DNA of 64,000 nt from positions 34,474,001 through 34,538,000 of the forward strand of contig NC_087245.1 in NCBI RefSeq assembly GCF_037042905.1, in the 5' to 3' direction. Shown here piece by piece: positions 1 to 55,299 of the stretch (the first letter of the stretch is position 1; each line of letters begins with the position of its first letter). The position numbers and the translations under genes are program-made. Under the pieces are notes generated by a model. The model worked only from the letters and a program-made list of their open reading frames with translations. It had not been told where the DNA came from and did no database searches. The stretch is from Lytechinus pictus (taxonomy: Eukaryota).

Positions 1-182
1 ATAAATATTTTCAGCCCAAACCATCCCTTTTACATGTAATGTGATAAAGTCATTTGATGTCCACAGCCTCATTCATGAACTCCAAATTACCATGACAAAC
101 CATCATAACCAGCAGGGGTTTTTGTTTTTTATCTGAGATTTCAGCGCAAGAATGTACATGTATGTAATGTACTTTCAACAAC

Positions 183-459
183 AACAAGCTGGGGTGAGCA
201 CATAATATGCCCACCTGTAACATAGAAAATGGAGTTATTGGTCAAGCAAGAAAAGTGGAAGGTGGCGACTTGCCTTTTTTTTTACCTCAATCAAAGGGCT
301 TCCTGGGATCCATGCTAGTATCATACACACCAAATTATATGACCCTTGGTTATAAAGTTAAACTGAAGTTATCGCATTTACTAATTAAAGAAAAGTTAAC
401 GGACAGACAGACACCAAAAGATACCATAATAAGTCCCGTAAGGACGGGCGTATAAAAAA
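183..459 (+). mobile_element. DINE-1/Helentron-like non-autonomous element
   Basis: Starts in an A-rich 'aacaag' context. Has an (ACGG/ACAG)n microsatellite at ~399-412 and a 3' hairpin CCCGT-aagg-ACGGG followed by an A-run. Confidence 0.5.
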
Positions 460-2084
460 TGTTAAAATCTATCTTCAAAAGATAAAGCTCGTCGAAAATG
501 CTCACAAAGCGATTTGCTTGAACATATTATTTTTGGACTGAAAAACAATTATCATGAGACCTAAGAATAGAAGACTTGAGATGTAATTTGTGAAACATCA
601 AGAGAAGTGAACCAACTCAACTCAATTACATGAGCTGCTTTCATTCCATGGGTTTACTTTTGATTTAGCCAATATTAGTCCACTAACTCAATACACTGTA
701 CATAGCAGAAATTTGTACATTTACAGTTTACCCCATGCTACGTTGCCTCGGATGCTCTCACAGAGGAGCTATCTCTTTTTTAATAAAAAGCAAACATGCA
801 AGCGAGCCTCTTCCATAAACCTCTTCTGACAAGCATCTAATGATTTTGTTTGCTAAACAATCTCAATGTCTGTGGTAACTGGTAAAGCACAGAAAAAATC
901 TTTATTTCTCTTTCGTTATTACATGTAGGGCCGATACACTTGCAATGTACACAGTCCTAAAAGCTGCACAGCGATTGCGGGTGAACATTTTGTTTCATAC
1001 TATGTAGTTGTATGTTTGTAATACTAAAAATGATATAAAAATAATCTTAGATATTTTTATAGAACATTTTCTAAAATAAGATTTAAGAAAAACATCAGAG
1101 GGCAGTGGTAGAAAGGATTTCCAGGTGTATCTATTGAACATTGGGACCAAATATTTCATGATGGTCTGTCTATTAGTATTAAAGAGCAACAAGTACATGG
1201 AAGAATTTATATTTAATGTACAACAGATTTATTGACTTTACTTCAATCAGCTCTACATGTATATATAAACTTAAGCCGTCCAAAAATGATACTCGATTAT
1301 TCTCTGATCAGACCATCAGGCAAGCTCCTGTGCTATAAAAGTTTTGAAAGATTATTCAGTAGACCTACAACTTAACATTTTTCAAATCAGAGTTGCAATT
1401 GAATGTTACCAAAGGCCTAAAATGGGAAATCCATCAAAATATTGGGATGTTGTTTCATCTTCCATGATTGCATCTGTCCATCTGTTTCCCCCTGGTCTAA
1501 GGTCAAGAGTTGAATCTGTGCTACCAACTTGTCTATGGCAGGGATTCCTTTCGTTCTCCCCTGCGAGCCTCTTTCTACATCATCGGTTGCCATCTTGTTT
1601 TTCATTCACCTGGATGCGAGCCATGTCTGTGTTAGTCTTGCTTTCTACACTTTCTAAGGAGGTCTTCGGTACATACAGTACCAGTACAAAAGAGCCCAAA
1701 TAAAACCTTTTGTAAAAGAACGTACACTAAACATTATAAACAATGTACACTTGTACAAGGCTACATGTGCAATGTTCACGTACAAAGACAGCCAACAGGC
1801 AACAGGAATATGCGGTGCTTTTAATACCTTTTTAAAGCCAAAATGGGTGTCACTTTGTACGTAGGTTATGGCTATTACAGAGTTTTCATTGAACATTGCC
1901 CTTCCTCTTGGCACAATTAATGCAAGCCTCTACAGTACGTTGTACATGGACATAATTATCAAAAAAAAGTTAGCTTTCCTATTCTTATCATTATTTTATT
2001 GTACTGCCCTCATTTTCCCCTACAATGTATTTCTATCATAGATAATTTTATGCACCTGTATGAAAATGTACAGTATACATCGAA

Positions 2085-2495
2085 AGGCCGTGCTGCACAA
2101 GTTTGCTCAATCTCGAGATTTTACCCTATCGGCCCTCTTCGTGATTAATCTCAAGACTCAAGAAACCCCATCTCCACCAGCGCAAGAAGAGCAATTCGTG
2201 CTCGAGTAAGGCTTTGATTTATCATGTTCTGACACCGTGAATAAATAATCCAGAGTCGAATCTTGAGTGCGTCTGCACCTGCTAATTACTTTGAATTAGT
2301 GGGACAATTTTTAAAAAGAGTGCTATTTTGCAAATAATCCTATAAAGTTGGCTTAGGATTGCAATCTCGAGATTAATCCAGTCAACTATCGCGATGATTG
2401 CATCTCCATTACAAATAATCTCGGGATTAAGATCCGACAAATTTGCCAGATCAGAAATAGTGCGATTTGAAAACTCGGGCTGGTGCAGACGGCCC
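2085..2495. mobile_element. MITE with GGCCGT(G)CTGCAC termini (Harbinger-like)
   Basis: Imperfect TIRs aggccgtgctgcac / gtgcagacggccct, with repeated internal palindrome AATCTCGAGATT and variants. Confidence 0.55.
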
Positions 2496-5400
2496 TCAAA
2501 AGTAGGCCTACATGTACACGTCCCTAGAGCAAATGCAGTGCTCCATATTAAATGGAGTATTGAAATATTGGATGAAAACCATGCCCCAATATCAAAGCTT
2601 GTGCATTCCCGTTGTCGAGACTAACACACATGTATATACATTTAAGTATGTACATGTAAATATAAAAAAAAGATTCCCCTAAAAGGGTCTGTATTTCAAG
2701 ACTAAAGTATAACTGGCTTGAAAAGGGACTTGCATTCAGCACACAAATCTAAAGTGGAATATTACACTGCATTTGTCAGGAATCTCCCCGTTCTTCTTTT
2801 CCCTTTGCACTTCAGCTATTGGAGTATGCAATACCAAGCCTGCTCTACATGTACCTGTGCATTTCCATGTACAGCAATACCACAGACATGTACATATGTA
2901 CTGTACTGTACAAATGTACATGTAGGACCTGATGAGTAGGGCATACATTTTGAGATTGGTCAGCAAACACAGAAATGACAACATATCATGTACACATATA
3001 CATGTACAATGTACCTGTAGGCCTAAATTAAATCCAATACATGATAGGCCTACAGATGCATGTCCATTGATCACCTGCATATAATGGGGGTGTACATATG
3101 CATACAAATGTACATGTAGAAAAGCATTTTTATTTCTCCCAGTCATTTTGCAGCATACATATACGGTATTCAGCGACACATTGCAAAAAAAGTATTGATC
3201 AGTTTTCTTTTTTAATGTGTACTTTTATTCTTTATTTTTTTTATATTGCATACATGTAGCTGTACGATAGTAAAAACTAAAGGACCCCCCCCCCCAAAAA
3301 AAAAGGTTCATGTAAAGCACTGTGCATTACTGTTTTTCCAGTTCACTGTCAAGTAGCTCCATGTATGATGTTCATTTTACAGCTTTTTTTAATTAAAAAA
3401 TGATTGATTAGACCATCCCTGTCCTACTTTAGCCTACATCACTGCATGTTAAATTCCAGTATATATGCAGTAATTTGGTTTACTACGTGTAGATCTACAG
3501 TACATGTACTGCACATGTACATTCACATTTTAGCAACATTTAGTCAAGAATCAGACATCATATCGAGCATATCTACAGATATTCTACGCACACACCTTTG
3601 AACATAAAAATACAGTGTAGGGTTTTTTATCATTATTGTTGGTATTGGACACTTTCCTATCTGAAACTAAACTACCCTGCCACTACAGTATACATGTACA
3701 GCAATGTAACTGTCCCCTTTGTACACTATCTTACATGTAGGCCCACATGTATATTGTTTTTCTTCATGAAAACACTTGAAGAGGTTTCATGAAAAATTGT
3801 TTTATAACGATAAAAAAGTTGCATGTTATCCCTCTAAATTACTGCAATTTTATTGAATATTGCAAGGGGGTATGACATACATGTAGATCTTCAGCATTAA
3901 ACACAACTACTCCGATTTCATACTGAAAGCTACTTCTCCCAAACAGGCAATATCGTTCTTGTTCTTGTTTGGTTGGTTGTTTGTTTTGGGGGTAAAAGTG
4001 AAATCAAGTAATAAAGCCTACATGTACATGTACACGTACAAGCTTTACCAACTGCACATGTACCAAATCTAGGCCATAAAATTAAAATCTAAGCATTCCA
4101 GAAGGCAGATAGATTCTAAATTTCTTTGCAATCTATCAACAATCTGCATAGAGTACATCAGATTTGCGTCTTTGTCATGGCGACCCTCCTACTATCAAGA
4201 TGACTGGATTTCAGGATGTATTTTAATGAGCAGCCAGACAAGATGGAATTCACAACACACAACACCCCTACTCACAAGCAGCGATTCATTATTCAATTCA
4301 CTGTGCACTTGAACCTATATATAGTATAGTGCAAGGTAACAGCCTGAATGCGGGATTTCAAAGATTTTCATGAATGATGCAAACTTTTCATTACAGGTGC
4401 ATGTTTTACTAGGATTTTTTTCTCTCAATCTGTTGTACAGTGACCAATTTTATAAAAATTCCCCAACATCGCATTTCAGAAAGACATCCAGAAAACAAGA
4501 ACTAGATAATGACATCATCATACCCCCCCCCCCCACACACACACACACAAAGACACTTTCAGACAAAATTGTATCCATTATATTTTAAGTACATCTAGTG
4601 ATACATGGAGGATTTGTTTTCATGAAGCTACAAATACTACATGTATGTAAATGTATGTAGTGGCTATGGTGTGGAGCAAAAATAGTTTTATGTTCTATCA
4701 TTGAATAACTGAATAAATTTCAAAAGTTTTTGTCCTGGTGCTATTGAAAACCGGAAGGGGTCAAAATCTACCTGTAAGACAATCCCTTTTCTTTTTCTAA
4801 TACAAACCATTCTCAGGTCAACCAAACCACTCATATCCTTTTAACTTCCTGCCATTCAGGAATCAACTGTTCCTTCCTGACAGAAAACAAAAAAGTTACA
4901 ATTCACACCAGATGTTCAAAGTCACAAAACTTGAAGATAACAATCCATTGTAATTCCAAGCACTAACCAATATATAATGATAAGGGTTACACATTTTAGT
5001 TGCCCAATCCCCAATGCACTATTGTTTCTCTCTTATTTTCACTATGATTGTAATTTCGTCAAAGGAAAAGATAAGCAAGATGAAGATATGATTGGCACTA
5101 CTATCCCCCCCCCCTTTTTTTTTTGGGGGGGGGGGGTAGGAGGTTCAAGCTAATGGATATTTTATCATTAACTGCATGTACAGTCGTAATTTGAAGTTTT
5201 TATAAATATGCTAGATGAAATTACTTAATCCATTATTTGTCATGGTAAAAAAAAATGTTGCATTCATGTACAGTGAATGAATGAAATGTTGTGTTTCATG
5301 CATGTACATGATTGAATTTATGAAATTCAAAGTTTTTTTTTATTGGATACACTTCCCCCCCCCCCCCCACCAAAAAAAATGAAGAAATCAACTTGAAGGC

Positions 5401-6269
5401 TTACATGTACATACATGTATCATCTACATAATTGTGAATGTTTTAAAAAATGAATTTGAACACCCTTTTGTGGTTTGAATTCTTCATCAATGTGTGCAAC
5501 AAAGTTTTTTTTTTCTCTTATTTGCAAATGTTGGACAGGACCTACATGTACACGTACGACAATAGCAGTCTCTAGGATTCTTGGTAGTACATGTCGACAC
5601 ATTCTACAAGTACCTCAGCTGTCAAATGTTTTTGTTGACAAGAATCAAACCAAACTTTTGACAATACATGTATAATCTACCCTGAAAAAATTTATCATGT
5701 ATGGGTTTGACATTTACTTTTAAAGTTGAAGTTAAATGTATGGTTTGGTGCCCCTTGTCTGTGCACTGGTGCCCAAGTCTATTGCAATACTGCATGATTC
5801 TACTCATCACAAAAAAATTAATTTATAAAATGAACACAACCATCTTCACATCACTTTCAGGGATAACTGAAAAATGAGGAAAAGTAGGGGGAATATTTAT
5901 TTTATACATGTACATGTAACTATTTCATGTGTCAATGCCTTTTTCATGAAAAAAAGACTCGGAATACCTAGAACTACAACTACATACAAGTGCACCTGAA
6001 CTAAAAACTAAGACTCCTTCCTTCCTCTCTTCTCTTATTTTTTGTACAAAATTGGCCTCACTGGTCATCACTTTCTTTCTGTTCAGGTTGTGTAGATTTT
6101 GAGAATTGAAATGCAGTCAGCTTGAATGATTGATAAACACAAATGGCCCTACACTACAGTTATAATGGAAAAGTGTGTTATTGTCAATTTCACATGAATA
6201 GACCCAAGTCTAATTAAATTAGCAGCAGACAGCATGAAAATCATTTGTCTTTCTTACTTAGTCTCTTAT

Positions 6270-6741
6270 AGTGAGTGATTGTATTACCGACCGGCCTTGT
6301 ATTACTGAACGCGCGCATCGTACGCGTCAAAAAAAAATTTCATACGCTCAAAACTTTGCAACATCCTTCCAAAGGGAACTTGAATAGAAAGATGATGAAA
6401 ATGGTCAAAAACACATTTTCAATGTCTTAATATTCTAATAAAAATAAAATATGGTCAAAATAGCTCATCGGTGATGTTGTTTTCTCAATTTTTCCCATTG
6501 GAAACACACGTTCAGTAATACGATACCTTGTTCAAGTGACCAAAATATTTCACATGCGAAGAGAGATCTGATTGGAAGCTAATATTGTAAAAAAGAAAAA
6601 CAATTTCGGCAACATTTTTACATATTTATATTTTGTAATAATTGTGTATTTATGGTGAAAGTTTGATGAATTTTATGAGAATAATGTGTTTGATATGATT
6701 GAATTGATGAAAAGTGTTCGGTAATACGATCCACTACCATA
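6270..6741. mobile_element. Degenerate MITE
   Basis: Ends gattgtattaccgac / gttcggtaatacgatc are inverted. An internal copy gttcagtaatacgata is also present. Confidence 0.45.
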
Positions 6742-7108
6742 CATACAGTAGGGCCAAGACTTAACATTGAGTAATTTACTTCTGACTTTCTTTTGTCTTT
6801 TTAACAACCCATCATCATTCATGCCATCAAATGTACATGTATTTTTAATACTGAGTCCTTAAATCATATTACATGTAGGTAAACGTTATACAGTTCAGTG
6901 CAACATGCAAATCAGCATGCTCAGTAATTTATCACACAGTCACAATCACCAGTCTCAGTCGGAGCAGACACACAGTCACAGACACCGCACCACGAACATC
7001 ACAAAAATTCTATGTGATACAGCCTATGTACGCGGCTAGCTCGGGCGAATCATCAGCGAAAGAATACCCCACGACATCCGACCGCTCATTCTCTCTCAAA
7101 AAACTCAC

Positions 7109-7174
7109 CAAATCTCCGCTACACGTCCCGAAAATGGCAACCAAAAATGCCCCACAAAGCAAAAGTACTCTCAT
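7109..7174 (-). CDS. First coding exon (signal peptide) of an unidentified secreted or membrane protein gene extending off the left edge
   Basis: AAAATG context. Encodes MRVLLLCGAFLVAIFGTCSGDL: basic N-region, hydrophobic core and a C-S-G cleavage-type site. Strong donor TTG|GTGAGT, CpG-rich flanks. No in-frame downstream exon was found in the window. Confidence 0.7.
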
Positions 7175-7890
7175 TTTTCTTCCTGTGTGTTGGTTTACTC
7201 GAGTTTTACTCCAATTCTTGTACTTTTTAGTACAAATGGCACAGTTCTAAAACGCGAAGGAAGGACTCTTCCAATCCTCAGCTTTCCAAATAAACGATAG
7301 CACACCGCGCGATATTGCGTTTATAGCATTCAGTTTATTCGATAGTTAGTGCAGTGTTGCGTGCACTAGTTTTTGCAATGTAAATGGGCATTATTGGGGA
7401 GTCTATGGTTTCTTTTATCAATGCAACAAAAGAAATAAAATATGGGGGACGGGGCAAAGGAAAGACGGCCTAACTAGCAGGATCAGACCTCTCAATCGAA
7501 ATCGTGGGCGGAATTGGTGAGACTATTCTTTTAGGACAAAAGAAAAAAATGGGGGGGGGGGGCACAACGACCTTGTAGCTGGAGTTAAACGACTCGGACC
7601 GCTTTTATACTCTTATTTCTTTCTTCTTCCACTACCCCCCCCCCTCTCTTTATTTTCTCCTTTTTTAACTTAAAACAAGTCATACAGGGCTGGCACCCTG
7701 CTTTGGTGCCGCCCCTGCATGTATATAGCATTATGCAAATATTACCATTGATAATAGGTGAATTATTGGGGGAGTGGACAACCATGTGGATTAAAAGGCA
7801 CGGAAAATACGGGTTAACTTGACACTAAGAGAGAAGGAAAGTGGAAAAACTATTAAAATGCGAATCACATATTTTAGGGGTAGTTGTCAA

Positions 7891-8037
7891 CAGGGGCCGC
7901 GGAACTGGGGGGGGGGGGCTTCAGTCCCCCACTTTTTCAAATCCGTGTACAAAAATGCAAAAATGACCATACGATTGTGATTTTTTGCATGGTCAGCCCC
8001 CCCCCCCCCCACTTTGAAAACCATTCCGCTGCCCCTG
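7891..8037. mobile_element. Small GC-ended MITE (CAGGGGC...GCCCCTG)
   Basis: TIRs caggggccgcggaa / ttccgctgcccctg with poly-G/C subtermini. No clear TSD. Confidence 0.55.
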
Positions 8038-8957
8038 GCCAAAACTATAGGCCTACAAGTTTAGAAGATGATTGAGTACTAATTTTCGTTATACAATCAA
8101 AAGGTGTTTATCGGCGAGGATTGTGACTCAACTTACCCAAACGGATGGGCCTGTTGAATGAAACAAATTCAGTTTAGTTTGTGGTTACCCACAGAATATA
8201 ATTGCGAGTTAAAGGGTCTTGCTATACAGACATAATAGACATCATGTTCGATTGAAAATTAATCTATGGAATTTATATGACATTAATAGGGTAGCTGCTC
8301 GCATATGACGTCAAAAATCAAAAACTTTAAAATTTCATAACTTTCTTATTTTTGATGGATTTTCATCAAACCTTCACCAATATCATTTGGTCAATTTTCT
8401 CACTTTTGTTAAAACCAATATATCGCCAGTGTGATGAACTCCTAAGTGGCCCGGGGGGGGGGGGCACTCACATACATTGGTGGTACGGTGACGCGCCACT
8501 TTGATGACCCCCTTTTCAAACTTTGATTTCAGTTCTATAGATATTCCGTATGACAAAAGTTTCGTTCAGAAGCGACCCCACCCCGCTCACAAGACCCCCG
8601 GGGTGAACTACGCCTTTAATGATTCCAATTGAATATAGATACATGTATATCCTCGAGCCTTTTATTTTCTGGGGGGTAGCACTTTGGCATATATGCAAAA
8701 CACCCCCCCCCCCCCTCCATATATTGATAATCTGTTAATTATCAATAAATAAATACGCCTAAATTCTGCTAATATGAATATTTCAACAAATAAAGAAAGA
8801 AAGTTATCAGAAAGGATACTAATTGGTAAAGGACTGATTTAATTACTAAAAATAGGCCTACATGATTGTTTTGTCTTGCGATATTAAGCGAAAGTTTGAC
8901 GGTGTTTATCCATGCAGAATGTAAACTTTGTTAGTTCAGAAGTTACGGCCATTTTGA

Positions 8958-9217
8958 CATAGGCGGCGGAAGCGGGGGGATGTGTCCCCCCCCCCCCCGT
9001 GTCCCCCCCCCCTCCCCTAAATTTTAGGTGGGGGGACGATCCCCCTAAACAAAATTTTCGATTACTTTTTTTTTTTTTTTTTTTTTTATTGCTTGTCAAT
9101 TGTTTTCCTGCGTCCCCCCTAAAATTTTTGGTTGATAACCTTTTTTCTTTTCTTTTTTTTTTGCTTGTCAAAATATTTTGTGGTCCCCCCTAAAATTTTT
9201 GGCTTCCGCCGCCAATG
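8958..9217. mobile_element. hAT-like MITE
   Basis: TIRs cataggcggcggaagc / gcttccgccgccaatg. 8-bp flanks CATTTTGA / CATTTGGA match at 7/8. Confidence 0.75.
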
Positions 9218-10110: not shown

Positions 10111-10517
10111 CCACTAGCAGCTGTTTGAGAAATAAATTTTGCCCAACATGAATTATGTGACCCCTATAAACCCCTCAAAATGTTTGGCTCAGTGCGCCTC
10201 TGCTTTCAATATATACCCCTTGAACCGGTCAATCAAAAATATGAAGAGGGGGTTAACATCCAGAAAGTCATAATTAGATGGTGATTGAACGGAAAACCCC
10301 CGAATTAGTCTACCCATATTATAGAGGTGGATCACCCCCCATGGGCACATTCCGTGGTCACAGTACAGCCACGGAATTAGCCCATCGTCCTTTTGAGGAT
10401 TCCATCCTAGCATCATAGAGATATCTCTATGCCTGGCATTCACTGTCTGATACCAACAGAGGGAGACAAAGCCCTTTCCACACGATGTTACATTCAATTC
10501 CTGATTATATTGAAGCA

Positions 10518-17700: not shown

Positions 17701-20065
17701 AGGATGATAGTAATAATAGGATTCTGAGGCATGCATCGAGTAAGAAAAAAACGTAAATAAATGAGCTCGATAGAAAACAATTTGAAAGTCCATGTGTGAA
17801 TAAAAAGAACCTGAAAACACAATTTGAACAGTAATACATTAATCAATCAATCCATACACTGCTCATGAAAAAAAATCTTCCAGTTCATTTGAAGAAATAT
17901 AACAGACTTATAAAAGTTCAGTCTCTTATTTTGATAATGGAAAATTCTGATGTTTCTATCAATTTTTTTACTGCAAGTATTCACTCATTTTATAGCAAAC
18001 AATGATTGCATTTCAACAGGTAAAGTGCATTGAACAAGGAATTCACACTAAGAATATGGATTGAACTTTTTGTTTCAATTTGTGAGAAAATTAAATGATG
18101 AAAGCAAGAATAATAATATCAGCACAGACAATAGAGCAAATATCTGATAAAGCAATACATGAAATGCTTTTTGATTATTGTACCTATTTGTTGCTTTTAA
18201 GTACATTTTACTTATCCTTAACTATTATACCATTTTTCTCCTATATTATTTGCTTTAATAGGTCTAAAAAATTACCAACATAATCATACAAGAAATGTGA
18301 AAGGAATTTTAACTACTAATCTTATTTGACAAAATATGAATGGATTTTATTTTGAAATATACATTCTATTTAAATGCACTTGTTAAGGTGTATTTTTTGT
18401 CATCATCATAACATTCAATATGAATTTGTAAGTTTGACCTGGACAATAACACTGAATGAAACTAACATACATGCTAAAGTGACTTGATGTAAAGAAATAA
18501 TTCATATAAAAAAATAACTTATAAAGAAAAGAAAAGAAAAATGCCAAGGTTTTTCTGCACATACATGTAACAGATCATTTCAAGAATATATATTTACATT
18601 ACGCCAAAAATGAGCGAAAGTACTAGCCCAGCCGTTTTTTGTTTGTTTCTTTGTTATTTTTTCCATTTCTTTATTTATTCTCTTTTGAGGGGAGGGGGGG
18701 GGTATGTATGCAATGAACCAGCCCAGCAATGAAGGTTTTGTGAATCATTGTTTTGTAAAACCCATGAATACATATGGTCGAAAATGTGAGAAAGTTAAGT
18801 TTATTTATATTCAGTTTTATCCTTATTGACAGCACAAACAGCTAGAATGGATATAAGAATCCATGGACTTAAAAAATTTTATGAAATTGATTCCATTTCT
18901 CTAAATGATTTTAGCCAGCAGTTACTTCCCTCTCCTAGCCAGTAAGTAAACTAAAATTACGATTGTTCTAATATTTGATCACTTTTATTAGGTGTAATAA
19001 TATCTCTTGATCAACAAATATCAAATAAAGCAATTATAATTTTGTTGGCAAAAAAGAAATCTTGCATGCAGTGCTGAAAAATTAAAATCAACCCGTTTCT
19101 CAAAGAGAACTACATGCCATTCTTCCAAGCTGCACAATAGGATCCAAAAAAGAATTTCAGTTAGAGGCATTGCAGCATATCACATGAATAATTACATTTT
19201 CAAATTTGTATTTCTACTTAAATGTGACATGATTTGATATGATTAAAACGGGTCATACAAATTCGAAACCAATTCACCGAAGTCATTTCAATAGACATTG
19301 ACCAACAATATCAAATCCCTTAAATATGAAAGTGTTTAGTTTTGTTTGTAAGCAGATTTATTTATGTATAGAATCATGGTAATTGATAAGCACTGGTGTA
19401 GGTGGGTATTGGTCAATCGTGAGGGTGGGTATGACGAACCTTGATGAACCTGGCACGTAGATGACTATGTGGTATCGAGGCAAAATTGGCACACCCCTGG
19501 ATAGGCGGGATCAAGCTGGACCAGAAACATCCACAACAATGTGGTATCCAGGTCATCTTTATCAACGTCACATCTTAATCAACTGTGCACACCCACATTG
19601 CCGTAGCCCTCCATTCTGACAAGGAAGCAGTATGTGTGTGACTGAAGATGACATGCCAATGCAGCATATAGGTGAACCCTCCAACAGGTTCATGGTGTCA
19701 CCTTATCAAGGAAAACCAAACAATGCACTATGTAGTTTCTGAGTGAGTTCTGCGGGGTCTCTGGATACTGTATTTAGGTGAACCCAACAGACCTCTGATG
19801 AGGCAGTATCTCAGTGAACCCCACAAGTCCACGTTGACACTGTTCTTCGGTGAACTGGACAACTGTTTCCAGAAGGTAAACCTTATAAACCCATGCTGAT
19901 GAGGTATCTACATGAACCCCACAGGGCCAAGGGGATACTGTACTGTCAACCAGACAACACACCATGTGAACCCTACAACATCATGGGGATACGTTACTTG
20001 GGCAAACCGGACAACCCATTACATGGTATCTACTTGAACTCGAAAGGGTCTTGAGGACACTGTAT
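14750..20065 (-). other. Probable long 3'UTR of the ZNF704-like gene
   Basis: AT-rich stretch nearly free of recognisable MITEs, running from the stop codon to a minus-strand AATAAA (plus tttatt 14772-14777). Repeats resume immediately to its left. The end point is inferred. Confidence 0.5.
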
Positions 20066-20233
20066 CTAGGTGAACCTGACGCACGCTTTCTTCCACCTGC
20101 ACTGGGTGCACCACATGTCTCGGTTCTCCATACCGTAAACCTTGCGGCATTTCTTCCCCTCCGATCTGATCTTGGGTTGTCCTGCTGAGCTGTGAGGGGC
20201 CGACTTGTGGCGGACTCTGTTCCCCGTGGATGG
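20066..20233 (-). CDS. ZNF704: ZNF704-like terminal coding exon 8 (C-clamp DNA-binding domain)
   Basis: Acceptor ...cacaaacag|. Encodes [55 protein letters not shown], a canonical C-clamp. TAG at 20068-20066. Confidence 0.96.
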
Positions 20234-21016
20234 CTGTTTGTGAAGGGGAAAAAAAAGGGGGGGTTAAGTTGGCCTATTGGTTTAACAAGTGTGGCGTGAA
20301 AGTTTGCTAGTGCAGTCTATGGAATTACCATTTCTAAAAACATCCAAGATTGAATGGAGAGACAGAAAAAGAGCACACAATTTTATGCTGCACTTCAGTC
20401 TAGTCGAGTAAATGAAACAAATCTATATAAAAAACTGGGAGTTGAAAATCAGTTTAATCTTCTGAAATACAAAATATGATTTTCTTTACCAATGTAGACT
20501 TTGAACAAATCCATCAACAACCCCCTCCCCCCCAAAAAAAAAACCTAGGATATTTGATTAACTTATAAATTCCGTCACACAATTTGAATGTAAAGAGAGG
20601 GAGAGTTCATTTGGTGAAGGAAACTTGATGAAAATCATGTTAAAAATACAAGACAATGATTGATCAAATTTATTTACCCTAATTACATTTATTCTATTCA
20701 TATTTCACTTTACATTCAATCATCATTCTATTTCTATTCATTTGCTTCAATTCATTATTATAATGTAAATTTTCATTTATTCATGCTTTCACTCATTTTA
20801 ATTTTTTTAATTCTTCTTTTTATTATTTTTAATACTTATTTTTAATTTACTACTTATTTCATTTTTATCTATCCATCCATGGACCTACTAGTAGGTCCAT
20901 GATCCATCTATCCGTTTATTTTATTCATCTACTTAATTTATCTAAATATTTCTTCGGGGGGGGGGGGCAAACTATCCCCCTTAACCTCCCCCGATCATAC
21001 ATTATAGATGACTTAC

Positions 21017-21130
21017 CTGGGAGGGCGGGGAGCATGAGGAGGGAAAGCTAAATGATGTCGGAGACGACGTGACTGGGCACCAAGAGAACGAAGGAGCTTG
21101 GGTGCTGGGAATACTCACTGGAGACGCAAT
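21017..21130 (-). CDS. ZNF704: ZNF704-like coding exon 7
   Basis: Long pyrimidine tract then ttccag|. Encodes IASPVSIPSTQAPSFSWCPVTSSPTSFSFPSSCSPPSQ. Donor CAG|GTAAGT, 114 nt, phase 0->0. Confidence 0.88.
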
Positions 21131-22615
21131 CTGGAAGACAGAGAGGGAGAAAGACAGAGAGGGAAAGAGTCGAGTCATAGAGAAAGATGGAGAGAGAGAA
21201 AGGGAAAGAGAGACAAAAGAAGAAAGGGAAAGAAAGAGAAATAGATGGTTGGATGATAGAAGAAAAGAATGGTAAAAATAGAAACAAAATACAAAAATAA
21301 AGAATAAGGAAAAAGAAGATAAATACTGTGTATTTTGTTACCTTATCTCTTTAATTAAGTTACAAAATTTGAATCTAACCAAATCAAATCAGAGAGAGAG
21401 AATCATAGAACATCACGCAGTGTAAGGCAATCTCAAGGTTTATGGTTTCATGACTGCTTATAAAAGCAACATTGAACAAATAACACCTTTAAACAATTAC
21501 TATTATCATGAGAAGATAAATATTGATGTAATGTCTGTTAAAAGTCCACGAGACAGACAAAACAACATCAAATGTAAACTTTAGCCCAATGCAATAGATA
21601 ATACAAACCAAATTTGAGTTGCAGAGAAAGAAAAGAAAACATGTTCCAGTTTTTTATCATAAGACCTGCTCATTACAGAGAAAGTTTGAAAACCTGTGAT
21701 TCCATTTCATCAACAATGATTATTTTAGAAATACACAACTTTAAACTGCAGAACTTTCTTTTCTATTACATCATCAACAACTTTCAAGTGAGTAGGTACA
21801 GCCCACGTCCAGACTTTAATCATCCAAAACAATATTGGGGTCTTTATTGACAGACTGCATGCCTATTCACAGTTCAGTTTTAAAACTCAAAGATGCAGCA
21901 ACATGAAAGACTGTACAGATGTAGAGGTTTCGAGTGCCAAGCTGCTTTCTAAACCAAAACAGACCCAAAGGTTAAAAAGAACAGGCGGGTTTTCCTCTCC
22001 TTCCTGAACGACATTTGAAACAGGAAACACGATGAAATCTGCTTGGCAAACTCTACCTAACTTCCTACGTCGCTTCCAGGGTACCCTTTACATTGATTCC
22101 CCTAGATCCTATTAAAGCAGAAATCTCTGCAAAACTTTTCCCTCATCTCCTATCCTTATTTTTCAGTTAGCTTTGAAAGTGGCATGCTCATTTCGTCAAA
22201 CTTTACTAAAAATACACAATATTTTCATTTAAAGAATTAAAGATTCACTTGTAACCTGAACTGTTTGACAATCCTCTTTTAATCATTCTTTAAGAAAGAA
22301 AGAATAATCTTTTGGAAGAGTGGTTCCAATATCTAGGTCAACAGTGACCGGCTTAATATACAGATGAAAATGTGTGGGTGTATACAGGGGCGTGAGAGGA
22401 CGTGTTTACAAACCAAATATTTTATCAATCAATCTGTTTAGCTCAGGCAATGCAAAGAATCAATTCGATTCAATTGAAACTGAAAACAAAAAGGTTTATC
22501 GAGATTCAAATCGAGATAAGTTTCCAATGTTGTGAATTCAAGGCCGATGAGGCGATTAGCCAATAGGCTTAAGGATGGGAGCTATAAGATATCGAGATGA
22601 CAAAAACATAGTTAC

Positions 22616-22973
22616 CATGGCGATTGCTTGGTTGGGCAGCGAGCCAACCAGAGGTGGGTTAGTCGAGTCACAGATGACGCTTGAAGAAACAATGTCACTG
22701 GACGTTGAGAGATGTCGCCCTCTCTTGGAGAGGATAGGTGAGGGAGAGGAAACCTCCATTGGTTTTGGTGTGATGTCTTGAGGGATGCTTGGGTGGGCGT
22801 TCTGAGAATGAGGGTGTGGTAGGCGGCTCTGATCAAGGATGAAGCCGGCGGATGGAGGTGGTGATGACGTGAACATGTTAGCAAGGGTATCGGAAACAGA
22901 TTCAACTGTAGTATCGATCTCGGTGTAGTAAAATTCCTCTTCATGATCACTGTATTCCTCCCCTTCCTTTTTC
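22616..22973 (-). CDS. ZNF704: ZNF704-like coding exon 6 (acidic EEEFYYTE conserved region)
   Basis: Acceptor tttatttctttgcag|. Encodes (R)KKEGEEYSDHEEEFYYTEIDTTVESVSDTLANMFTSSPPP..., matching the family EEDFYYTE motif. Donor ATG|GTAACT, phase 2->0. Confidence 0.9.
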
Positions 22974-23394
22974 CTGCAAAGAAATAAAAAAGAAAAAGAA
23001 ATAAGATTAAGATATCTATTACCTAAGTTGCCTTTAATTTTGTTTAGCAGTGTGTACTAGAACTGAAAAGACACAAAAAGATTGGAGTCAAAGCACCGTG
23101 TCCACTTGAATTTGCTTCATATAACTTCAGAAGACAATGAAAGAAACAAAGGAAGGAAAAGAAAATCAACTGTCATCTACTCAGATTTCAGCAGATATCA
23201 AGTTACAAACATTATCATTCATAACATTATAACATTTTGATCAAATTTCAGATTGTTATGCGAAAGCACTGAGATAATATGATCTTATCTTTTCATGATT
23301 CCCTTCTTCTCTTTTGTATTAATGGAATAAACGTATATCAAGGGATGCAGCCACTAAAATGATATCACACAAATCAATGTAACAAGATACCAGT

Positions 23395-23543
23395 CAGTGG
23401 CAGATCCAAGCGGGGGCACAAGGTGCGCATGCCCCCTCTATGTTGAGAAAATTCCCATATTGGACATGGACATTTATCGAGCTAAATCTAGGAAAGTTGT
23501 CATTAACATCCCCTCTCATTGCAAAATCCTGGAACTGCCACTG
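23395..23543. mobile_element. Small hAT-like MITE (degenerate)
   Basis: cagtggcagatcca / tggaactgccactg termini. Confidence 0.55.
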
Positions 23544-26500
23544 GAGGTACATTTTCCAGAAAGAAACCTGCAAAAAACAGGGATGATAATTGCTTCTCCT
23601 CAATCCATCTTCCAAGGACATTAGATTCTCAATCTAAGTGCACAAGAGCAATTTGATTATGTAAGGATTACGTAACAAGGTGGGCATTAAGTGAGATATC
23701 ATAACGTTTTCAAAATTATTTGCCAGAGCTTAAGGGGATAGAACTATCAATTATTATGGTATGACATTAAACTAAAAATATATCTTCAAATCCAAGTTTT
23801 TGGGGAGAGTTTGATGAGCCATCTTGGAAGTTATTTTCACTATAACAGCCAGATGGAAGGAATTCAGCAAAATATCGTGGGAAATGGCTTGATGAAATAA
23901 TTGAGAATCTTAAAAATTGCGCTATAAAAAAGATAAGGACACAAATCTTTCTGAATTTTTCAGAATCATAAACAAGATAAATACCTGTTACAATTTCATG
24001 TAATTATGTCAGACACCCCCTCCCCCTGCAAAAAAAAAATATGGGGCAATCCTGAAATTATATGTCTCTACTTGCTAGTTGACATGAAAAGGTGTAATCT
24101 CAAATTATTATGGCTTGAGAATTTTATCAAGGAGCTGAAGCTCCTTGATTTTATGAAGTGAAGTGAGAATATAAAAATATGAGTAGTGGGGGGTAAACAA
24201 TGTTTATTATTTAATGGAATGGCCCAAACAGTGATGATAACACGAAGGAGAGAATATATGAAATAATAAAAGGCCATGCTCTAACTGCGAAGATATTTTG
24301 AAAAAAAGATTTGCACTATTTTTTTTTGCAGTAAATGCAATGATAGTAATAATTACATTAATACATATGAAGAGATAAAAAAAAAAAAAAACAGAGAAGA
24401 TCAGAGACACATAAGAAAAAGACAGGTTTTATTCATTTGGAAGATATCCAAATAAATCATTATAACAGTACCATCACATTTCAGGTAGAAATGCAAAGGC
24501 ATAATTTATGGAAACAGCTGGGTGCCTTACCATCTACAGTACACCCATCAAGATGGCAAAATTAAAATATGCAACTAGGCCAATTTAATACAACAAATTC
24601 ATTAAAAAAAATGATTCTGTGGTACTACTCTGAATACAGATTTACACCATATATGAATGAAAAAAAAACAGTTTCACCTATCATTGCTTGCATTTCTTTA
24701 ATACTATATATTTTAGAATAATTTCTCTGACTTGCATGATAGCTCAACGTGGGGACTCGGGTGCAGAGAGCATTTTATGCATACCGCTCTGCTTGCATTA
24801 GGCCAATATATATATCATTAAAAATCAATAACAATGTGAACTACCCCTTCATCCCTTCCAAGGCCCCTTGATGGAGTATGTATGCTAACATTTATCTGCT
24901 TTCATAGCAACCATGTTCATTGTTGTAACCATATAGTGGTATATATCTCATTCTCATCCTGTGGCAATACAAACATTTTAACAGCATAAAGGGCTGAAAA
25001 CTGTATTTATGCTGTGATAACCGCATTTTCACCCTTTTCCAATGGTGTAGTAAACGATACAGGGACAGATGTATATACAATGCAATATGTATGCAAATCT
25101 GACAAATAAGATAGATATACTACAGAAAAAAGAACATTTGGAACAGTGGCATAATGCGTTAAAAAAATTAAGGGGGACAGACATGGTGTACTGGGCAAAT
25201 TTTCTAAAAAGCTGCAAGAAAGCTAGGCAAGTGAGCAAAAAATTTCACCTCCCCCTTATCTATATGAAACATCTCTCCTTGCTAACCAACTCCTTGCCGT
25301 ATCGAACGGGGGAAGATACCATACACTGCGCAAAATATAAACCAAGAAGCAGAAAATAGACCGATAAATTATTCATACACGGCCAAGGATAAACAACTGA
25401 TTTGAATCTCTGTCAGCTTTTACTGATGAACTATTGATCAAGATTTTTCAATGTGGATAGTCAATTTGGATAGGCAAGGTTGGGTAACAAAGGGTGCATG
25501 CTCTTTGAGAGGTTTGATAATTGGAAGAAAAAAATATTGACTGAATATCTATTGGGGCAATCCTTGAAATAAAGAACAGAGAGAGAGAGAAAGAAGGGGT
25601 GAGGGTAGAACTTAGAATGGGTGATAGAGAGAATAAGAATACAATGAAGGCATGAAAAAAAAAGTTGATGCAAACTTATGATAAACCAAAGGAAGAGAGA
25701 GAGAGAGAAAAGTAACGAGTGATAAATAAAGAGAAAGAGATAAGAGACCAAAAAGAAAAGGAGAGAGCAAGATAGATCATGGTGGTTACAATATAAGATG
25801 GAGAGGCTGCAAAATTTTCACATAATTTTTTTCTGCCGGAGGGGCGGGGGATACCGGTAAGTATATTTTCCAGATTTCATGAGGGAACCAAACTGCACAT
25901 GATTAACTGTGACACAAAATCATATCCAAATTGCCTGATCAGAAGAATGGAACGTATTGAGGTAGAGGTATAAAACCATACCATATGGTAGGTTTCCTGA
26001 CGTACTCCCAGGTGCTGCAAACGAAACCGATTGCTGGATTTGGAAGCGCTAGCACAGGTTCACTGTCCGACGTGATAGATAGAAACCCTGATGCTCGATG
26101 GACATCATCATTTTGAATTTAGTCTAATCACCTAGACCTGCATTGGTCAATTACCCAATCAGTTTTGTTTGAGTTACAAAACCTCAACAAAAGATATTTA
26201 TACACAGAGCGCCGGAAGTCATATTGCTGGGCATGTTTGTCTATATAAATCAAAATGAAGGGAAGAAGACAAATATGTATATAGTCAGGCTTTTGGTCAA
26301 GTATGATATTGAAGAATTCCCCCATCTTGATTCATTGTGGTAAAGTCTAAACTGATCAGCATTTTTCTTCCGAAACCTATACCATGTGTGTGTGCTTGTA
26401 TGTGCAGCAAGGACCCTGGGAAAATTGATTCAATACCATGATACCTAGTTTGATTTAACCAACCTTTTTCGTTGTTACTGTTCATGCGTTTCAATTTTTG

Positions 26501-34775: not shown

Positions 34776-35190
34776 GTTTATGAGTGCAATGGACAAAATA
34801 CTTCAGGAGGTGAAAGATGAAAAGATCCATTCAACGAGGCATAGCCGAGTTGAATGGATCATTCATTTCATCTTTCATCGAATGAAGTATTCTGTCCATT
34901 GCACGAATGAAGGAACGTTCATTATTTGGTTTATATGACACTTAAAACTAGATTATTTTTCATAGGAAATTTATCAATTTTGATGCAATGTATGATCATG
35001 CAGTGCAAGCTCAGTCTGTTGATTGTCTCGTACAATGCGCGCGTGCAATGGACAAATTTGTAAGGATAAAAAATTGCACGATGAATGGATCCTAAATTGC
35101 ACGGACGATGACGTCATTGTAAAATGGTCTGAATGATCGATATCAAACAACTAATCAAATGCCAAGGATCTATCTAGGTGTCATATAAAC
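34776..35190. mobile_element. Non-autonomous element with internal hairpin (possibly Crypton-like)
   Basis: Inverted gtttatatgacac (34930) / gtgtcatataaac (35178-35190). Hairpin gatccattcaac-gaggcatagccga-gttgaatggatc at ~34825-34860. Confidence 0.45.
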
Positions 35191-49210: not shown

Positions 49211-52054
49211 TAGGTCTCTTTTAATGATGCCATGGCCAGGTCTTATATCTGCAATGATTGATATAGCAGAACCTTGCCCCGTCCAAGTTCAACCAGCGTG
49301 CAGGTTGGTATTGCTAATAACATCCCAATGTCACTTCTGCTCACAATCAGCAGTTCAGCGACCTCGTTGAGGCTGGGTGACAATCCCGTGTGATCAAGGA
49401 GACTAGAGTGATATCTCCTTGGTGTGATTAAGCCGTATCATGGCTGCCCATCAAAATAGCAGGGGTAGGCTTATAAATACATTTCTTGGGGCTAATATGA
49501 CACAATCATTCCTCACAATTTGACAATTTGTTTAATCATATGAAGACATTAAAAAAATCATTTCAAAGATAGCACCTCAACTTTAGTGTGGCATGTGAAT
49601 AAAAAAAAAACATGACTTGAGACTGAGGTTATTAGTTTTCTTGTAATATTATTGACACAGAGATAGATGTAAATGCATTTCAGAATGTTTACAAATTTAC
49701 CAAAACAAAAGACGTTTCATTTATCCATATAGTGAATGCTATAATAAATAAGGCAAGAAGATAATGAAATATATATAATATAACATAATTTATTAATAAT
49801 ATAATTCATATCGAAATGACTTTGGAAATTCAGTGATTAACATTTCATCAACAATCAAAATAGCAACATTCTCAAATAACCTACATATTGGGCACTACTG
49901 AATTTAGTGGGGACAATAAGTGCTCATAATCACTGCCAGCTCTAGAATGTTCTATACACTTGAACTTCTACTTCACCAAATACTAAATTATGATATCAAC
50001 CCATATTTACCAAGTTCCAGTCAAACAATCATGACCACCAATAAAAGTGTGCAATAAGGGGTTTACCAACTTGGCATGATTCCAATAAATTTTGCTGCAA
50101 AATAAAGATCTTGTATATACCGGTATTTCTCTCTTCCGTTCCGATACAGGGTGTCGGGTTTTCAGAAGGAAAAAAAGCACAATAGCTCGCACATAATTAT
50201 GACGTATTTTGCTTCCTTTCTTTGGGAGTTACCGATCTCTCCTCCGATGTTTATCAACAATACACGCCGGTAAACACGATAAGAACAAAACTCGGCGGAT
50301 TATGAATGCGACCTTGTTCACATATTGAGATCTGAACAGGTCATTTTGATGTTTTCGTGGGCAAGGCCGCCTTTTAAAAGGGTGCACTTTTATGAAATGG
50401 GGGAGGGGTGGGAGGAGGAGGCACAGCCCGAGGCTTAGTATGATATACAAGGCCACGGCCTTGTAATTCAACCCATGGGATAGGAGGAACCACTTACAAT
50501 AAAAGAAAACGCGAAAAGCCAAAAGACATTCCCCTCAGTTTTCTTCAAAGTGTAAACTAAAGGGGGCACTTCACTATCTAAACCCCACCCGCTCCCTTTC
50601 AAACATTTTGTTTTTCAAGTTTTGTACACCGCTTCTCTCCACGTTCAGAGCGCTCCGACGGTTCAACCTACCAATGTTCAAAGAAAATGGCCGCCTACGC
50701 AAATGCGATCTTTAGCTGCCGAAGAGCTGGTCTTTACTCTTTACCTTCAAAGTTACTTATTATTTACATTTGACGCTGACGTCAGATCATTGAGGAGGCT
50801 GAGATGGATAACAAGAGCAAACAATGGTCTGTTCAGGTTTTGTTGAGAGATGGACAAGGTTACGAATATCTAGATCACCAACGCTTCAAATATTTATGTT
50901 TATTGGAAAAGTCAGATCATATCATGGTCAAATAACTTCTCTTGAGATACACTGAGTGAGTAGTTTAAGTCCATGAACTTCAACCAATATTTCATAAAAA
51001 TATAGAACAGAAATGATAGAAGTATACTAAAGAAAACCATCGGCACTATCTCCTATCTTATGATTACAATGCCATTTCATTTACCTTTCCAACTTACGAG
51101 GTCAAACAAACCGATTTTCGATTCTGGATTGGCCTTGAAGCCTGTTTGAAAAAAGGATTTATAATCCTAGTAAGAACGCCACGCGTACCGGCTTATTAGT
51201 CTGCAAAATTAGTCCTTTATCTGACTGTTAGTTAACCAATGCAAACATGATTGAATGGGGGTAATAACATAATGAAATACAACTACCGATTGAAAAATTA
51301 ATTATAGCATACGCTAACGAATTTGAAATTCGAACTTTTTTTTTTTTACATTGGTGAAATTACAAGCTCGAAATAACCTAGGGTGGGTTCTCTGTGTAGT
51401 ATGTGGTATCACAATATAGTAACTCATTTTAATGAGTACGAATGACTATTGGAAAATGGAGCTTACATAACTATTTATGACATTATACAGACATACCAGG
51501 CAGTGCCAACGTCCCCCACATTTACACGTCAACGTTACATTTTTATTTACTGAAAATAAAGTGTGATGTTCCAGACTAGAAGTTTAAATCCCCGGCACCC
51601 TTGATGTTTGAAAGAGACGTGTGCAAAGTTGATAGCTCTCCATCCAACTCCAGCGAATTCATTACACTCTATCGTTTTACTGATTAAAGTGTCCACCAGG
51701 CAATTAACAATAATGATATCAATCGGCAATCCAGGGACTGAAAATGGCAGCGGCACGAAGAATGCCATCAATAAGAATTAATGAGTTGATGTGAATGTGA
51801 AAATGATGCATTGGATTGTTTTTATATGGATTCGATGGGATGGTGGCGAGGGGGGGGGGGGGCAGAGATGCACACGAGAGCGCATCAGTTGTTTCTCCAA
51901 ATTGCCGAATAAACACACGTATGAATTTAGATGTATACTATATAGGCCTAGATTGTGAGAGTGAGACCCTTTAGCCCTATATTGGAAAAGGGAGTTAGGG
52001 GTATAAAAAAAAAATGATCATGATGAAGTGATGGAAGAACAAAATAAATCTTAC

Positions 52055-52596
52055 CTTCTTGGGCTTGGATTTGGAACTTCAATGGTGGTTGATACGGGTC
52101 GCTTCTTTGGTTCTGGGCAAATTTCACCGAGCCTGTCGTGCCTGTTAGAGTCTGTGAGGTTATGATGATGATGGTGGTGGTGATGGTCAGTGAGTTTAAC
52201 GCTCTTGCGACTTTCCAACAGCCGGACATCGTCGAGTTTCCTCTTGAAATTCGTCTCGGAGGCATCGGCACTTTTGAGCAAAACCTCGTTCGTCTGCTTC
52301 CGATGCTTCTGAACGATGGCTTTTACTTCACGGCCGTCAAGGATGGTGTACACGGGTTGGTTGAATTTGAGATGAGTATGAGAAACTGGTAAGAATCCCG
52401 GGCCAACCATCATGTCCGCTAGGCACTCACTCGCGACACCGTCTTCCCGAACGACCTCGTACACGAATTCGCCGTTCGGTGTTCGGGCCCTGATGCCTCG
52501 TATCAACACGGGGTAAAAGATTCCATCCGAATACATGGCGCTGGCAAGTGTACCGATAATGGATCGCTTCGGTGTTCGCTTCGGATTTGAGAGCAT
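52055..52596 (-). CDS. ZNF704: ZNF704/ZNF395/SLC2A4RG-family transcription factor, coding exon 1 (Tudor-like/DUF4772-type N-terminus, His8 tract)
   Basis: ATG at 52596. Encodes MLSNPKRTPKRSIIGT...DGIFYP...VGPGF...QPVYTILDGREV...DDVRLLESRKS, resembling the N-terminus of ZNF395/Glut4EF. Donor AG|GTAAGA after 52055, phase 2. Confidence 0.9.
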
Positions 52597-52799
52597 GATT
52601 ACATCAGCAAACTCCTTCTGAAGGAATAAATCTCACAAAATAATCTTCCAGTTCTAGCTCATCAGAAAAATGTAATAACTATCGGCAAAAGTCTAACGCA
52701 CGGCGAACACGTACACAACATAAGTGAATTGTTTTGAAGCGAACATGCGGAGATTGTTTTGATCTCGAGCGGTGAAAGAGATGGGCGTGACTCTAACCG

Positions 52800-53040: not shown

Positions 53041-54696
53041 ATTTTGTGCAGTCGATATTGGGCTGGGTTTGGGGTTGCTGCAGCGTTTGCTATGCCAATG
53101 AATTATTGAATATGATTTGTTTGTTAATACTTTGATAAGCTTTTCAGTCCATCTCTGTAGTAGTTGTTGGCAATATCATCAGTGGAAACTCAGCTCCATT
53201 GCTTTATGAAAAGAAATAGATTTCAATATGCCTTCAGAAAATTACTACTCAAAGGACCCCCAACACCTCAGCACATGCACATACCCACCCTCAAAATAAA
53301 CTTTGTTTCACCATGGACCTGTAATAGGTCCATGGTTTCACCAAGATGACACTCCCCCCCCCCCCCCCCCCTCTTACCATTTCTTGAAAATTTTAAAAAT
53401 ATGTACTTTTGTTTCTCCTTGATCATGACATGACAACATATTTATTAAGAACATGAAGCATAATCTGATTTTCTTCTCTTGGACATTTAGGCCTAGTTCT
53501 TCTACGTGTCTTTTTCCTCTTGTAATTACATTAATAGGAAATTCATAAATTGTATTTCTAAACGTGGATTTTGTTTTTCCACTCCTGATTTTGCGAATAA
53601 AAATATGACCTGCCACACGTACGCCAAATCGAGGTCCCTCTCCAGCTCTTGCGTTGAGGTGCAAGTATTGAACGTGCTCCCTCTGGTAGCCGGTGGAAAC
53701 GCCGGGTCAATGTAAAGCGCCCTCAAAAAATAAAGAGACGAATGCTGGGCGACGCGAATGCTAAAATCAGAGGGAGTATAAACGGTAATTGTAACTCCTC
53801 AAACAGAAAGAAGAAAAACCCCTCTGTAGTGAGTGCGGTTTGTTTATGTCGAAACTTGGGGTCGAGCCAAAAAGCAAATGACCGATGCCTTTCCCTAGTC
53901 TAAATATCAGACGCATATGAGCTGTAATTACAAAATACCAATAAAAAATTTAATAAAGCATCAAATGGACTTTTAAAACTAGCTGAAAATAATAATTTTC
54001 AAAAAAAAATTATGAAGGTAGAGATTAGTTCCGTTATATGACAATTTCAAAGATACAAGTTATTTTCATTTGGAGAAAACCATGTATGATTATGAAAGAC
54101 TATTCAGTGAGCGCAGTGAGCTCTGCTACCTATTTGATGTGTTATGATGGCCGTAAATCAACTGAGGGGCCCCGCAGAATGAACAAGGTATCTAAAAAAA
54201 TATTACATAATCTTTTCTCTGAACTGATTTTATACAAAGCAATCGAATAGATTAACATGCCGTATTTAGATTATTTCTGTCTTTTCAATAGCAAATTCAT
54301 TGGATGGAAAGAAGATACTCCTTGCAGTCTGCAGATACATAAGATTCATCTCACCATGGAGTTTCTTTCTACCTCCATGATCTCACACAGTGCTTGAGAA
54401 GGACTCTTCACAAATATATGTAATACACTTTTGTTGTCATTAATTATATAATTATTGTCACAAAGTAGGCACTGTAAACCAAATCCTCCACTTTCAATTT
54501 CAATTACCCCCCCCCCAAAAAAAAAAAAATCTCCACGTCAGCTCTGTTGCTTCGCTCACTTATTGCATGGTATTCTTGCCCCTCCCCCCCCCCAAAAAAA
54601 AAAAGATCTACAACAACAAATGGCTTATATAGCGGCCCAATCACCACCAACACGGTTCTCCATTACAAACACGTTTGCAGATTCGATAAAGATTAA

Positions 54697-55299
54697 AGGT
54701 CAAGTCCACCCCAGAAAAAATGTTAATTTGAATAAATAGAGAAAAATCTAACAAGCACAACACTGAAAACTTCATCAAAATCCGATGTAAAATAAGAAAG
54801 TTATGACATTTTAAAGTTTTGCATATTTTTCTCAAACAGTTATATGCACAACTCAGTGATATGCAAATGCGAGAGTATATGATGTCCAACACTCACTATT
54901 TCTTTTGTTTTTTATTGTATGAATTATATAATATTTCAATTTATACAGAATTGACAGTAATGTAAAACTTGACTGAACTACATAATGTTAAACAATGTTA
55001 ATTCCACAAGTTCAGGGAGGAATAAAGCTCGATTTCAAATGACATGGGTGAGAAAATCAGAATATTTCATATTTCAGATAATGAAATACAAAAGAAATAG
55101 TGAGTGCATGATGTCATCAGTCCCCTCATTTGCATACTGGCCTGGATGTGCATATAACTTTTTTGTGAAATTAAGCAAAACTTTAAAATGTCATAACTTT
55201 CTTATTTTACATTCGATTTTCATGAAATTTTCAGTGTTATGATTGTTGGATTTTTATCTTTTTATTCAAATCAACTTTTTGTCGGGGTGGACTTGTCCT
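54697..55299. mobile_element. Kolobok-like MITE with long inverted arms
   Basis: TTAA|aggtcaagtccacccc ... ggggtggacttgtcct|TTAA. Inverted similarity extends more than 150 bp (aaataagaaagttatgacatttt / aaaatgtcataactttcttattt). Confidence 0.85.

Follow-up and report, generated by a model that had tools for sequence, protein, structure and literature searches.

The short palindromic insertion at 20871-20908 of the Lytechinus pictus DNA analysed here (a stretch of 64 kb, hereafter the window) is probably an inert scar left by a cut-and-paste DNA transposon, with the P superfamily as the likeliest source. Read directly and recovered by our scan, the site consists of two exact 7-bp direct repeats that enclose a perfect palindrome of 24 bp (20878-20901, arm 12), just as the first-pass annotation had described it, and it is without sign of function. 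The site and its immediate surroundings comprise the following features:

20066-20233, minus strand: last exon, cysteine-rich (translation)
20234..21016, minus strand: host context, the last intron (GT..AG) of a ZNF395/ZNF704-like gene, containing the 20871 site (splice signals)
20871..20877, no strand: target-site duplication, left copy, 7 bp (sequence, palindrome/repeat scan)
20878..20901, no strand: 24-bp perfect palindrome, apparently two 14-nt transposon-end stubs with a central CTAG overlap, a putative microhomology junction (sequence and junction analysis)
20902..20908, no strand: target-site duplication, right copy, 7 bp (sequence, palindrome/repeat scan)

The host gene is a spliced minus-strand gene at 20066-52632, which we take to belong to the ZNF395/ZNF704 family on the strength of its last exon and of a DUF4772 domain in its upstream exon at 52054-52632 (Pfam, E 1.9e-11). 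Of the scars described here, three fall within its introns and two a short way upstream of the exon that encodes DUF4772. The window DNA around the site is animal non-coding sequence. Rfam returned no matches within 19000-26000, and Pfam detected neither THAP nor transposase domains in the 150 longest of the 314 open frames of the window (the remaining 164 being 55-68 aa long). Predicted hairpin folding of the inserts repeats the information already held in the palindromes.

The first-pass annotation had counted four sites of this kind. The same architecture does recur in the window, and the number proved too low: a scan that used no end motif (perfect arm of at least 7 bp, exact 7-bp direct repeat, insert of up to 45 bp) returned five firm sites, at 20871, 24121, 49388, 53305 and 54348, with inserts of 24, 20, 27, 23 and 25 bp, respectively, and a relaxed scan added a candidate sixth. 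Besides the 20871 site, these are:

10406..10439, no strand: candidate sixth scar, 18-bp perfect palindrome, CATAG ends, 8-bp duplication with 1 mismatch (relaxed scan)
24121..24154, no strand: sibling scar, 20-bp insert, CAAGGAG ends, arm 9, exact 7-bp duplication (window scan)
49388..49428, no strand: sibling scar, 27-bp insert, CAAGGAG ends, arm 8, inner ends dissimilar, exact 7-bp duplication (window scan)
53305..53341, no strand: sibling scar, 23-bp insert, 9-bp ends identical to those of the 20871 site, exact 7-bp duplication (window scan)
54348..54386, no strand: sibling scar, 25-bp insert, CATGGAG ends, arm 7, exact 7-bp duplication (window scan)

CAWGGAS ends and an exact 7-bp duplication were found at 5/5 firm sites, and all window sites start with CAT or CAA. 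Perfect palindromes are confined to the 20871 site and 10414, the rest having arms of 7-9 bp and dissimilar middles; the five firm sites probably come from several families. Their targets follow a loosely palindromic RT-nnn-AY motif, with nine of the ten half-sites reading RT (p about 4e-7). The enrichment over randomised sequence that the first-pass annotation had anticipated was evident: the same scan gave a mean of 0.0 sites on Markov-1 controls and 0.07 (maximum 1) on Markov-5 controls, with 60 simulations each and no control site starting with CA, and the CATGGAS pattern matched three times in the window, each time within an exact 7-bp repeat, versus 0 in 100 dinucleotide shuffles. When the arm was shortened to at least 6 bp, repeats of 5, 6, 7, 8 and 9 bp gave 8, 3, 5, 1 and 0 sites, respectively. 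The relaxed scan, which allowed inserts of up to 60 bp, found seven sites (Markov-4 mean 0.1, maximum 1, 40 simulations), the additions being the good candidate at 10414-10431 and a weak one at 35100, and the insert lengths it returned were 18-27 bp only. The five firm sites, or six with the good candidate, amount to about one scar per 11-13 kb of the window, and the scars are shorter than annotated repeats.

Low-complexity intron DNA could offer a simpler origin, by chance, slippage or templated insertion, and the flanks of the 20871 site are indeed AT-rich, with ATCC/ATCT-like units. Against this, the ends are independent of the flank, the duplication length is fixed and the controls lie at about 0. 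Scars of hairpin opening (hAT/RAG-type), in which palindromes derive from flanking DNA, were ruled out, since the ends here do not depend on the flank.

Some other features of the window were recorded alongside these scans. In GAAT-rich DNA at 5253-5291, exact 8-bp repeats enclose an insert of 23 bp that reads CAT...ATG and has a 7-bp arm; its ends are not CAWGGAS, and it may belong to a different family or be due to chance. The interval 54710-55287 (about 580 bp) contains a MITE-like foldback element whose 141-nt arms are 86% complementary. The sequence TACATGTA occurs in 34 copies versus 3.4 expected (Markov-3, 30 simulations), mainly within 1-9000, with 27 of the copies before 9 kb.

The first-pass annotation had also looked to larger elements with the same termini, and the 64-kb window holds none, nor any longer element that combines these ends with a duplication. 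Eight long pairs with relaxed ends were found in the window; their arms are only 2-7 bp, and we took them as chance.

We then turned to public sequencing runs, four of eight of which (X2, X4, X6 and X8) were compared over 20050-24400. In three of the four, the organism is about 94-95% identical in introns, and in one it is closer. Depth at 20887 reached 195, 275, 460 and 38, versus neighbouring single-contig depths of 17.6, 77.9, 45 and 2, and loose contig ends fell at 20872-20877 and 20911 in the four runs; the palindrome is therefore present at other loci with other flanks. A 28-bp variant, with CTAG added behind 20887, appeared in X2 (two contigs) and X6 (one contig, depth 155). The 24-bp form would represent 14 and 14 nt overlapping in CTAG, and the 28-bp form either two 14-nt stubs joined blunt or the product of 15-18-nt tails that annealed over 2-8 nt. 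Both forms would be derivable from one self-complementary tail of 15-18 nt; the 28-bp form, like the 20871 site, would need tails of at least 14 nt, and 15-18 nt fit.

One X6 contig at single-copy depth (record 17) aligned over 20874-21135, beginning with its first letter and with 10 gaps, and the insert is thus present at the orthologous site of a relative that is about 94% identical. This differs from the empty orthologous target that had been hoped for: the relative's single-copy contig holds the insert, and no empty site was seen among 12 of the 133 indel rows. The insert at the orthologous site dates the scar without refuting excision. A search among the loci collected likewise found no empty paralogue of the target. 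At the 24121 site, the insert is apparently present in X8 and X2, and contigs of X4 and X6 show net losses without a placeable position; loose X6 ends at 24122 and 24154 imply copies of this scar at other loci. Between the two sites, at 23433-23516, 70 bp with 5-bp inverted ends lie inside exact 7-bp repeats next to a short repeat, and loose ends of several runs fall at 23395-23441.

The same ends were found far outside the window. We searched metagenome contigs for the 9-bp ends of the 20871 site separated by 3-14 nt, a pattern that itself sets the ceiling of 32 bp on the inserts it can return. The exact 24-bp and 28-bp forms were absent from these contigs. At least 120 loci matched the pattern, and 37 of the 120 listed, representing 32 distinct non-coding sites from few data sets, carry exact 7-bp or 8-bp duplications. 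Among the loci listed, 22 of the 119 scorable ones have an exact 7-bp duplication and 15 an 8-bp one; duplications of 5, 6 and 9-12 bp did not occur, and two loci have one of 4 bp. Control shifts of -2, +2 and +3 gave 0, the +1 and -1 shifts being excluded because the duplications themselves contaminate them. Prokaryote genomes searched with the same pattern served as a matched control and yielded 0/120 loci with a duplication of any length from 4 to 12, and viral contigs yielded 0/5. The duplications at the metagenome sites are bounded by G..C (counts symmetrised).

Duplication-bearing loci also differ from the others in coding content. When duplications were counted with at most one mismatch and loci under 500 bp were dropped, an open frame covered over 90% of the locus in 0/42 duplication-bearing loci versus 26/65 others, and Pfam gave no matches for 128 frames of duplication-bearing loci. 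The 22 seven-bp loci derive from 8 assemblies, and 13 of the 15 eight-bp loci from another 10. The loci probably trace to a small number of host animals whose microbes were sequenced along with them, and the rows are not independent of one another. Several loci are moreover repeats of single sites (L008/L076/L102, L015/L018, L036/L077 and L040/L089), and we therefore make no claim that both orientations occur. That these 9-bp ends recur in unrelated DNA, itself non-coding, suggests that the lineage is widespread or that the ends are strongly constrained. The same ends and duplications in unrelated DNA also count against chance or slippage; the Markov controls, the metagenome duplications and the prokaryote 0/120 together refute that reading, which we regard as scarcely credible.

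The metagenome inserts comprise 35 distinct sequences at 41 sites and measure 21-32 bp, the upper bound being that of the pattern, and their junctions provide a view of how the two ends were joined. Heterogeneous junctions between two end stubs, with microhomology or filler, are present in this set. In the 8-bp family, the two ends are identical to each other for only 12 bp, and one 17-nt end is common to seven distinct inserts, after which all four letters follow; this branch was counted with no length cut imposed. Recurring joins were 17+17-2, 17+17-4 and 17+11-4, in a decomposition that by design cut candidate ends at 17 nt. The common end of one 7-bp family measures 19 nt, not 17. A 51-bp member (L049:193-243) consists of 17 nt, a filler and 16 nt; the 18-nt filler shows partial similarity to the flank read in reverse complement, as a templated insertion would. 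At L030:250-385, a single 7-bp target carries three serial scars of different sequence (32, 32 and 36 bp), and this suggests that elements entered and left a hot spot repeatedly. Loci L047 and L086 are one site, with flanks 94% alike and inserts of 26 and 29 bp that have a 17-nt end in common, as would result from independent repair or later deletion. Given this pair, part of the ladder of insert lengths may reflect later deletion. At 18-27 bp, the window inserts fall short of the combined length of two 17-nt tails.

Such lengths could also arise if the inserts were extreme internal-deletion remnants, left by aborted gap repair or by a later hairpin collapse between inverted MITE ends. On this account, which we consider unlikely, insert length would say nothing on cut depth, and no long stagger would be required of the enzyme. 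The 36-bp and 51-bp members, the two insert lengths at the L047/L086 site, the family with 19 nt in common and the fact that our own pattern imposed the 32-bp limit all agree with deletion remnants. The window scan, however, returned only 18-27 bp where 60 bp was allowed, no longer end pair with a duplication exists within 64 kb, and the abrupt divergence of the 8-bp family into all four letters behind nt 17 would be unexpected under random deletion.

A different possibility is that palindromes of 20-32 bp are mobile micro-elements, moved as units by a transposase acting in trans; if still mobile, they would lie far below the size of any non-autonomous transposon described so far. Inserts of identical sequence do occur at separate sites with different duplications (24-mers and 32-mers at 2-4 sites, including one 24-mer at 4 and one 32-mer at 3), the depth in the public runs is multi-copy, and no parent is seen in the 64-kb window. 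Yet the 35 distinct sequences at 41 sites and the five different inserts at five window sites, with their junction-like middles and fillers, speak against units that move intact, and the same diversity led us to reject a MITE, whose copies would be uniform in length and sequence. A 24-bp unit under a 17-nt stagger would presumably be left with neither a paired core nor room for internal transposase-binding sites. Identical products also recur in P excision through favoured microhomologies, in up to 14 isolates in the experiments described (PMC2895639). We thus hold the micro-element reading to be very doubtful.

End-joining scars of P-superfamily elements are the best reading of these sequences, and one in which we have fair confidence. 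In the pathway that we propose, an element with CATGGACC-type ends would insert into a loosely palindromic RT-nnn-AY target and duplicate 7 bp; the duplication and the motif are seen directly, and the insertion event is presumed from them. Excision would then cut the non-transferred strands deep within the element ends and leave long single-stranded 3' element tails on the flanks, a staggered cut that is established for Drosophila P (17 nt) and that we extend to these families by analogy. Germline end joining would trim the tails and anneal them over a short microhomology, so that the product reads duplication, stub, stub, duplication. We infer the enzyme, the excision events and the tail length of the window families from their products. 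The reading as excision scars is well supported, and the inserts belong to the class of products obtained in P excision experiments (PMC2895639). In that work, P transposase leaves 17-nt 3' element tails on the donor flanks, and end joining proceeds through short microhomology, blunt or filler joins (PMC2895639).

The first-pass annotation had read the site as a probable P-superfamily excision scar. The scar is upheld by the fixed ends, the fixed 7/8-bp duplications and the variable junctions; the superfamily is a weaker part of that reading, for the window showed neither a parent element with these ends nor, among its 150 longest open frames, a transposase. Four features point to it, namely the ends, the duplication length, the target motif and the stub length, and the sites share with the P superfamily a 7/8-bp duplication, CA-starting inverted ends and a loosely palindromic target. 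CA-starting ends are not P-specific on their own: hAT elements likewise have CA...TG ends, with 8-bp duplications. This, together with the lack of a transposase among the window frames scanned, would fit the same scar mechanism carried out by a non-P or undescribed transposase with a deep cut and 7/8-bp duplications. To our knowledge, however, hAT excision leaves no element-end stubs, and the duplication is 7 bp at 5/5 firm window sites, where hAT would give 8. A long stagger, moreover, distinguishes P transposase in the passages concerned, which give 17 nt for the Drosophila enzyme only (PMC7776569, PMC10983969), and the 7-bp duplication and RT..AY target agree with Galileo and 1360 as described (PMC4168063, PMC3698922). 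A non-P enzyme is, in our estimation, quite improbable. We lean slightly away from the further proposition that the scars display a P stagger of about 17 nt and a 9-bp end kept across distantly related animals, which is nevertheless likelier, and less radical, than palindromes that still move.

The mechanism itself is already known from the laboratory. A search by title, with few subscription journals covered, found no literature on natural, abundant scars of P type. If these are natural P scars, any assembly could be read without experiment for past P-like sites, for the cut depth of each family and for germline repair. With five to six in 64 kb, they would commonly give rise to small insertions that go unannotated, both within introns and close to promoters, and they may preserve a record of how such enzymes cut.

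Several known systems resemble these scars in part. P-superfamily MITEs such as BuT5 are likewise non-coding, with short inverted ends and a target duplication; as described, BuT5 is about 1 kb long, of fairly uniform size and with putative THAP-binding sites, whereas the inserts here span 18-36 bp, with one of 51 bp, and differ from one another at the central junction (PMC3698922). The zebrafish element Pdre2/THAP9 is a P-like system from outside the insects whose inverted ends are likewise short (13 bp) and start with CAT and whose duplication is 8 bp; it differs in the sequence after CAT and in being a full-length element (PMC10983969). Target duplications are given as 8 bp for P and 7 bp for 1360 and Galileo (PMC3698922), and Galileo prefers GTATTAC or GTAGTAC (PMC4168063, PMC2775673). 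Galileo and 1360/Hoppel are accordingly close to our sites in duplication length (7 bp, sometimes 8) and in a palindromic target that can be set beside RT-nnn-AY; the word 'footprint' has 0 occurrences in the main texts of the three sources (PMC4168063, PMC2775673, PMC3698922). The inverted ends of Galileo are long, and the element carries a transposase gene (PMC4168063, PMC2775673, PMC3698922); in several families here, inverted identity spans only 7-12 bp.

The excision junctions of Drosophila P, as reported by Chan, Yu and McVey 2010 (PMC2895639), are like the inserts in their order of parts, with a duplication, a stub starting with CATG, a second stub and a duplication. They are also alike in their joins, which show microhomology of 1-3 nt, blunt ends or filler and favour products that recur (PMC2895639). 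The window scars, at 18-27 bp, are shorter than those junctions (PMC2895639), and their parent and tail length are deduced from the scars themselves. Finally, the Drosophila junctions were generated in the laboratory from one family, whose duplication is 8 bp (PMC2895639), whereas the inserts described here would be natural, inherited scars of several families, mostly with a 7-bp duplication.
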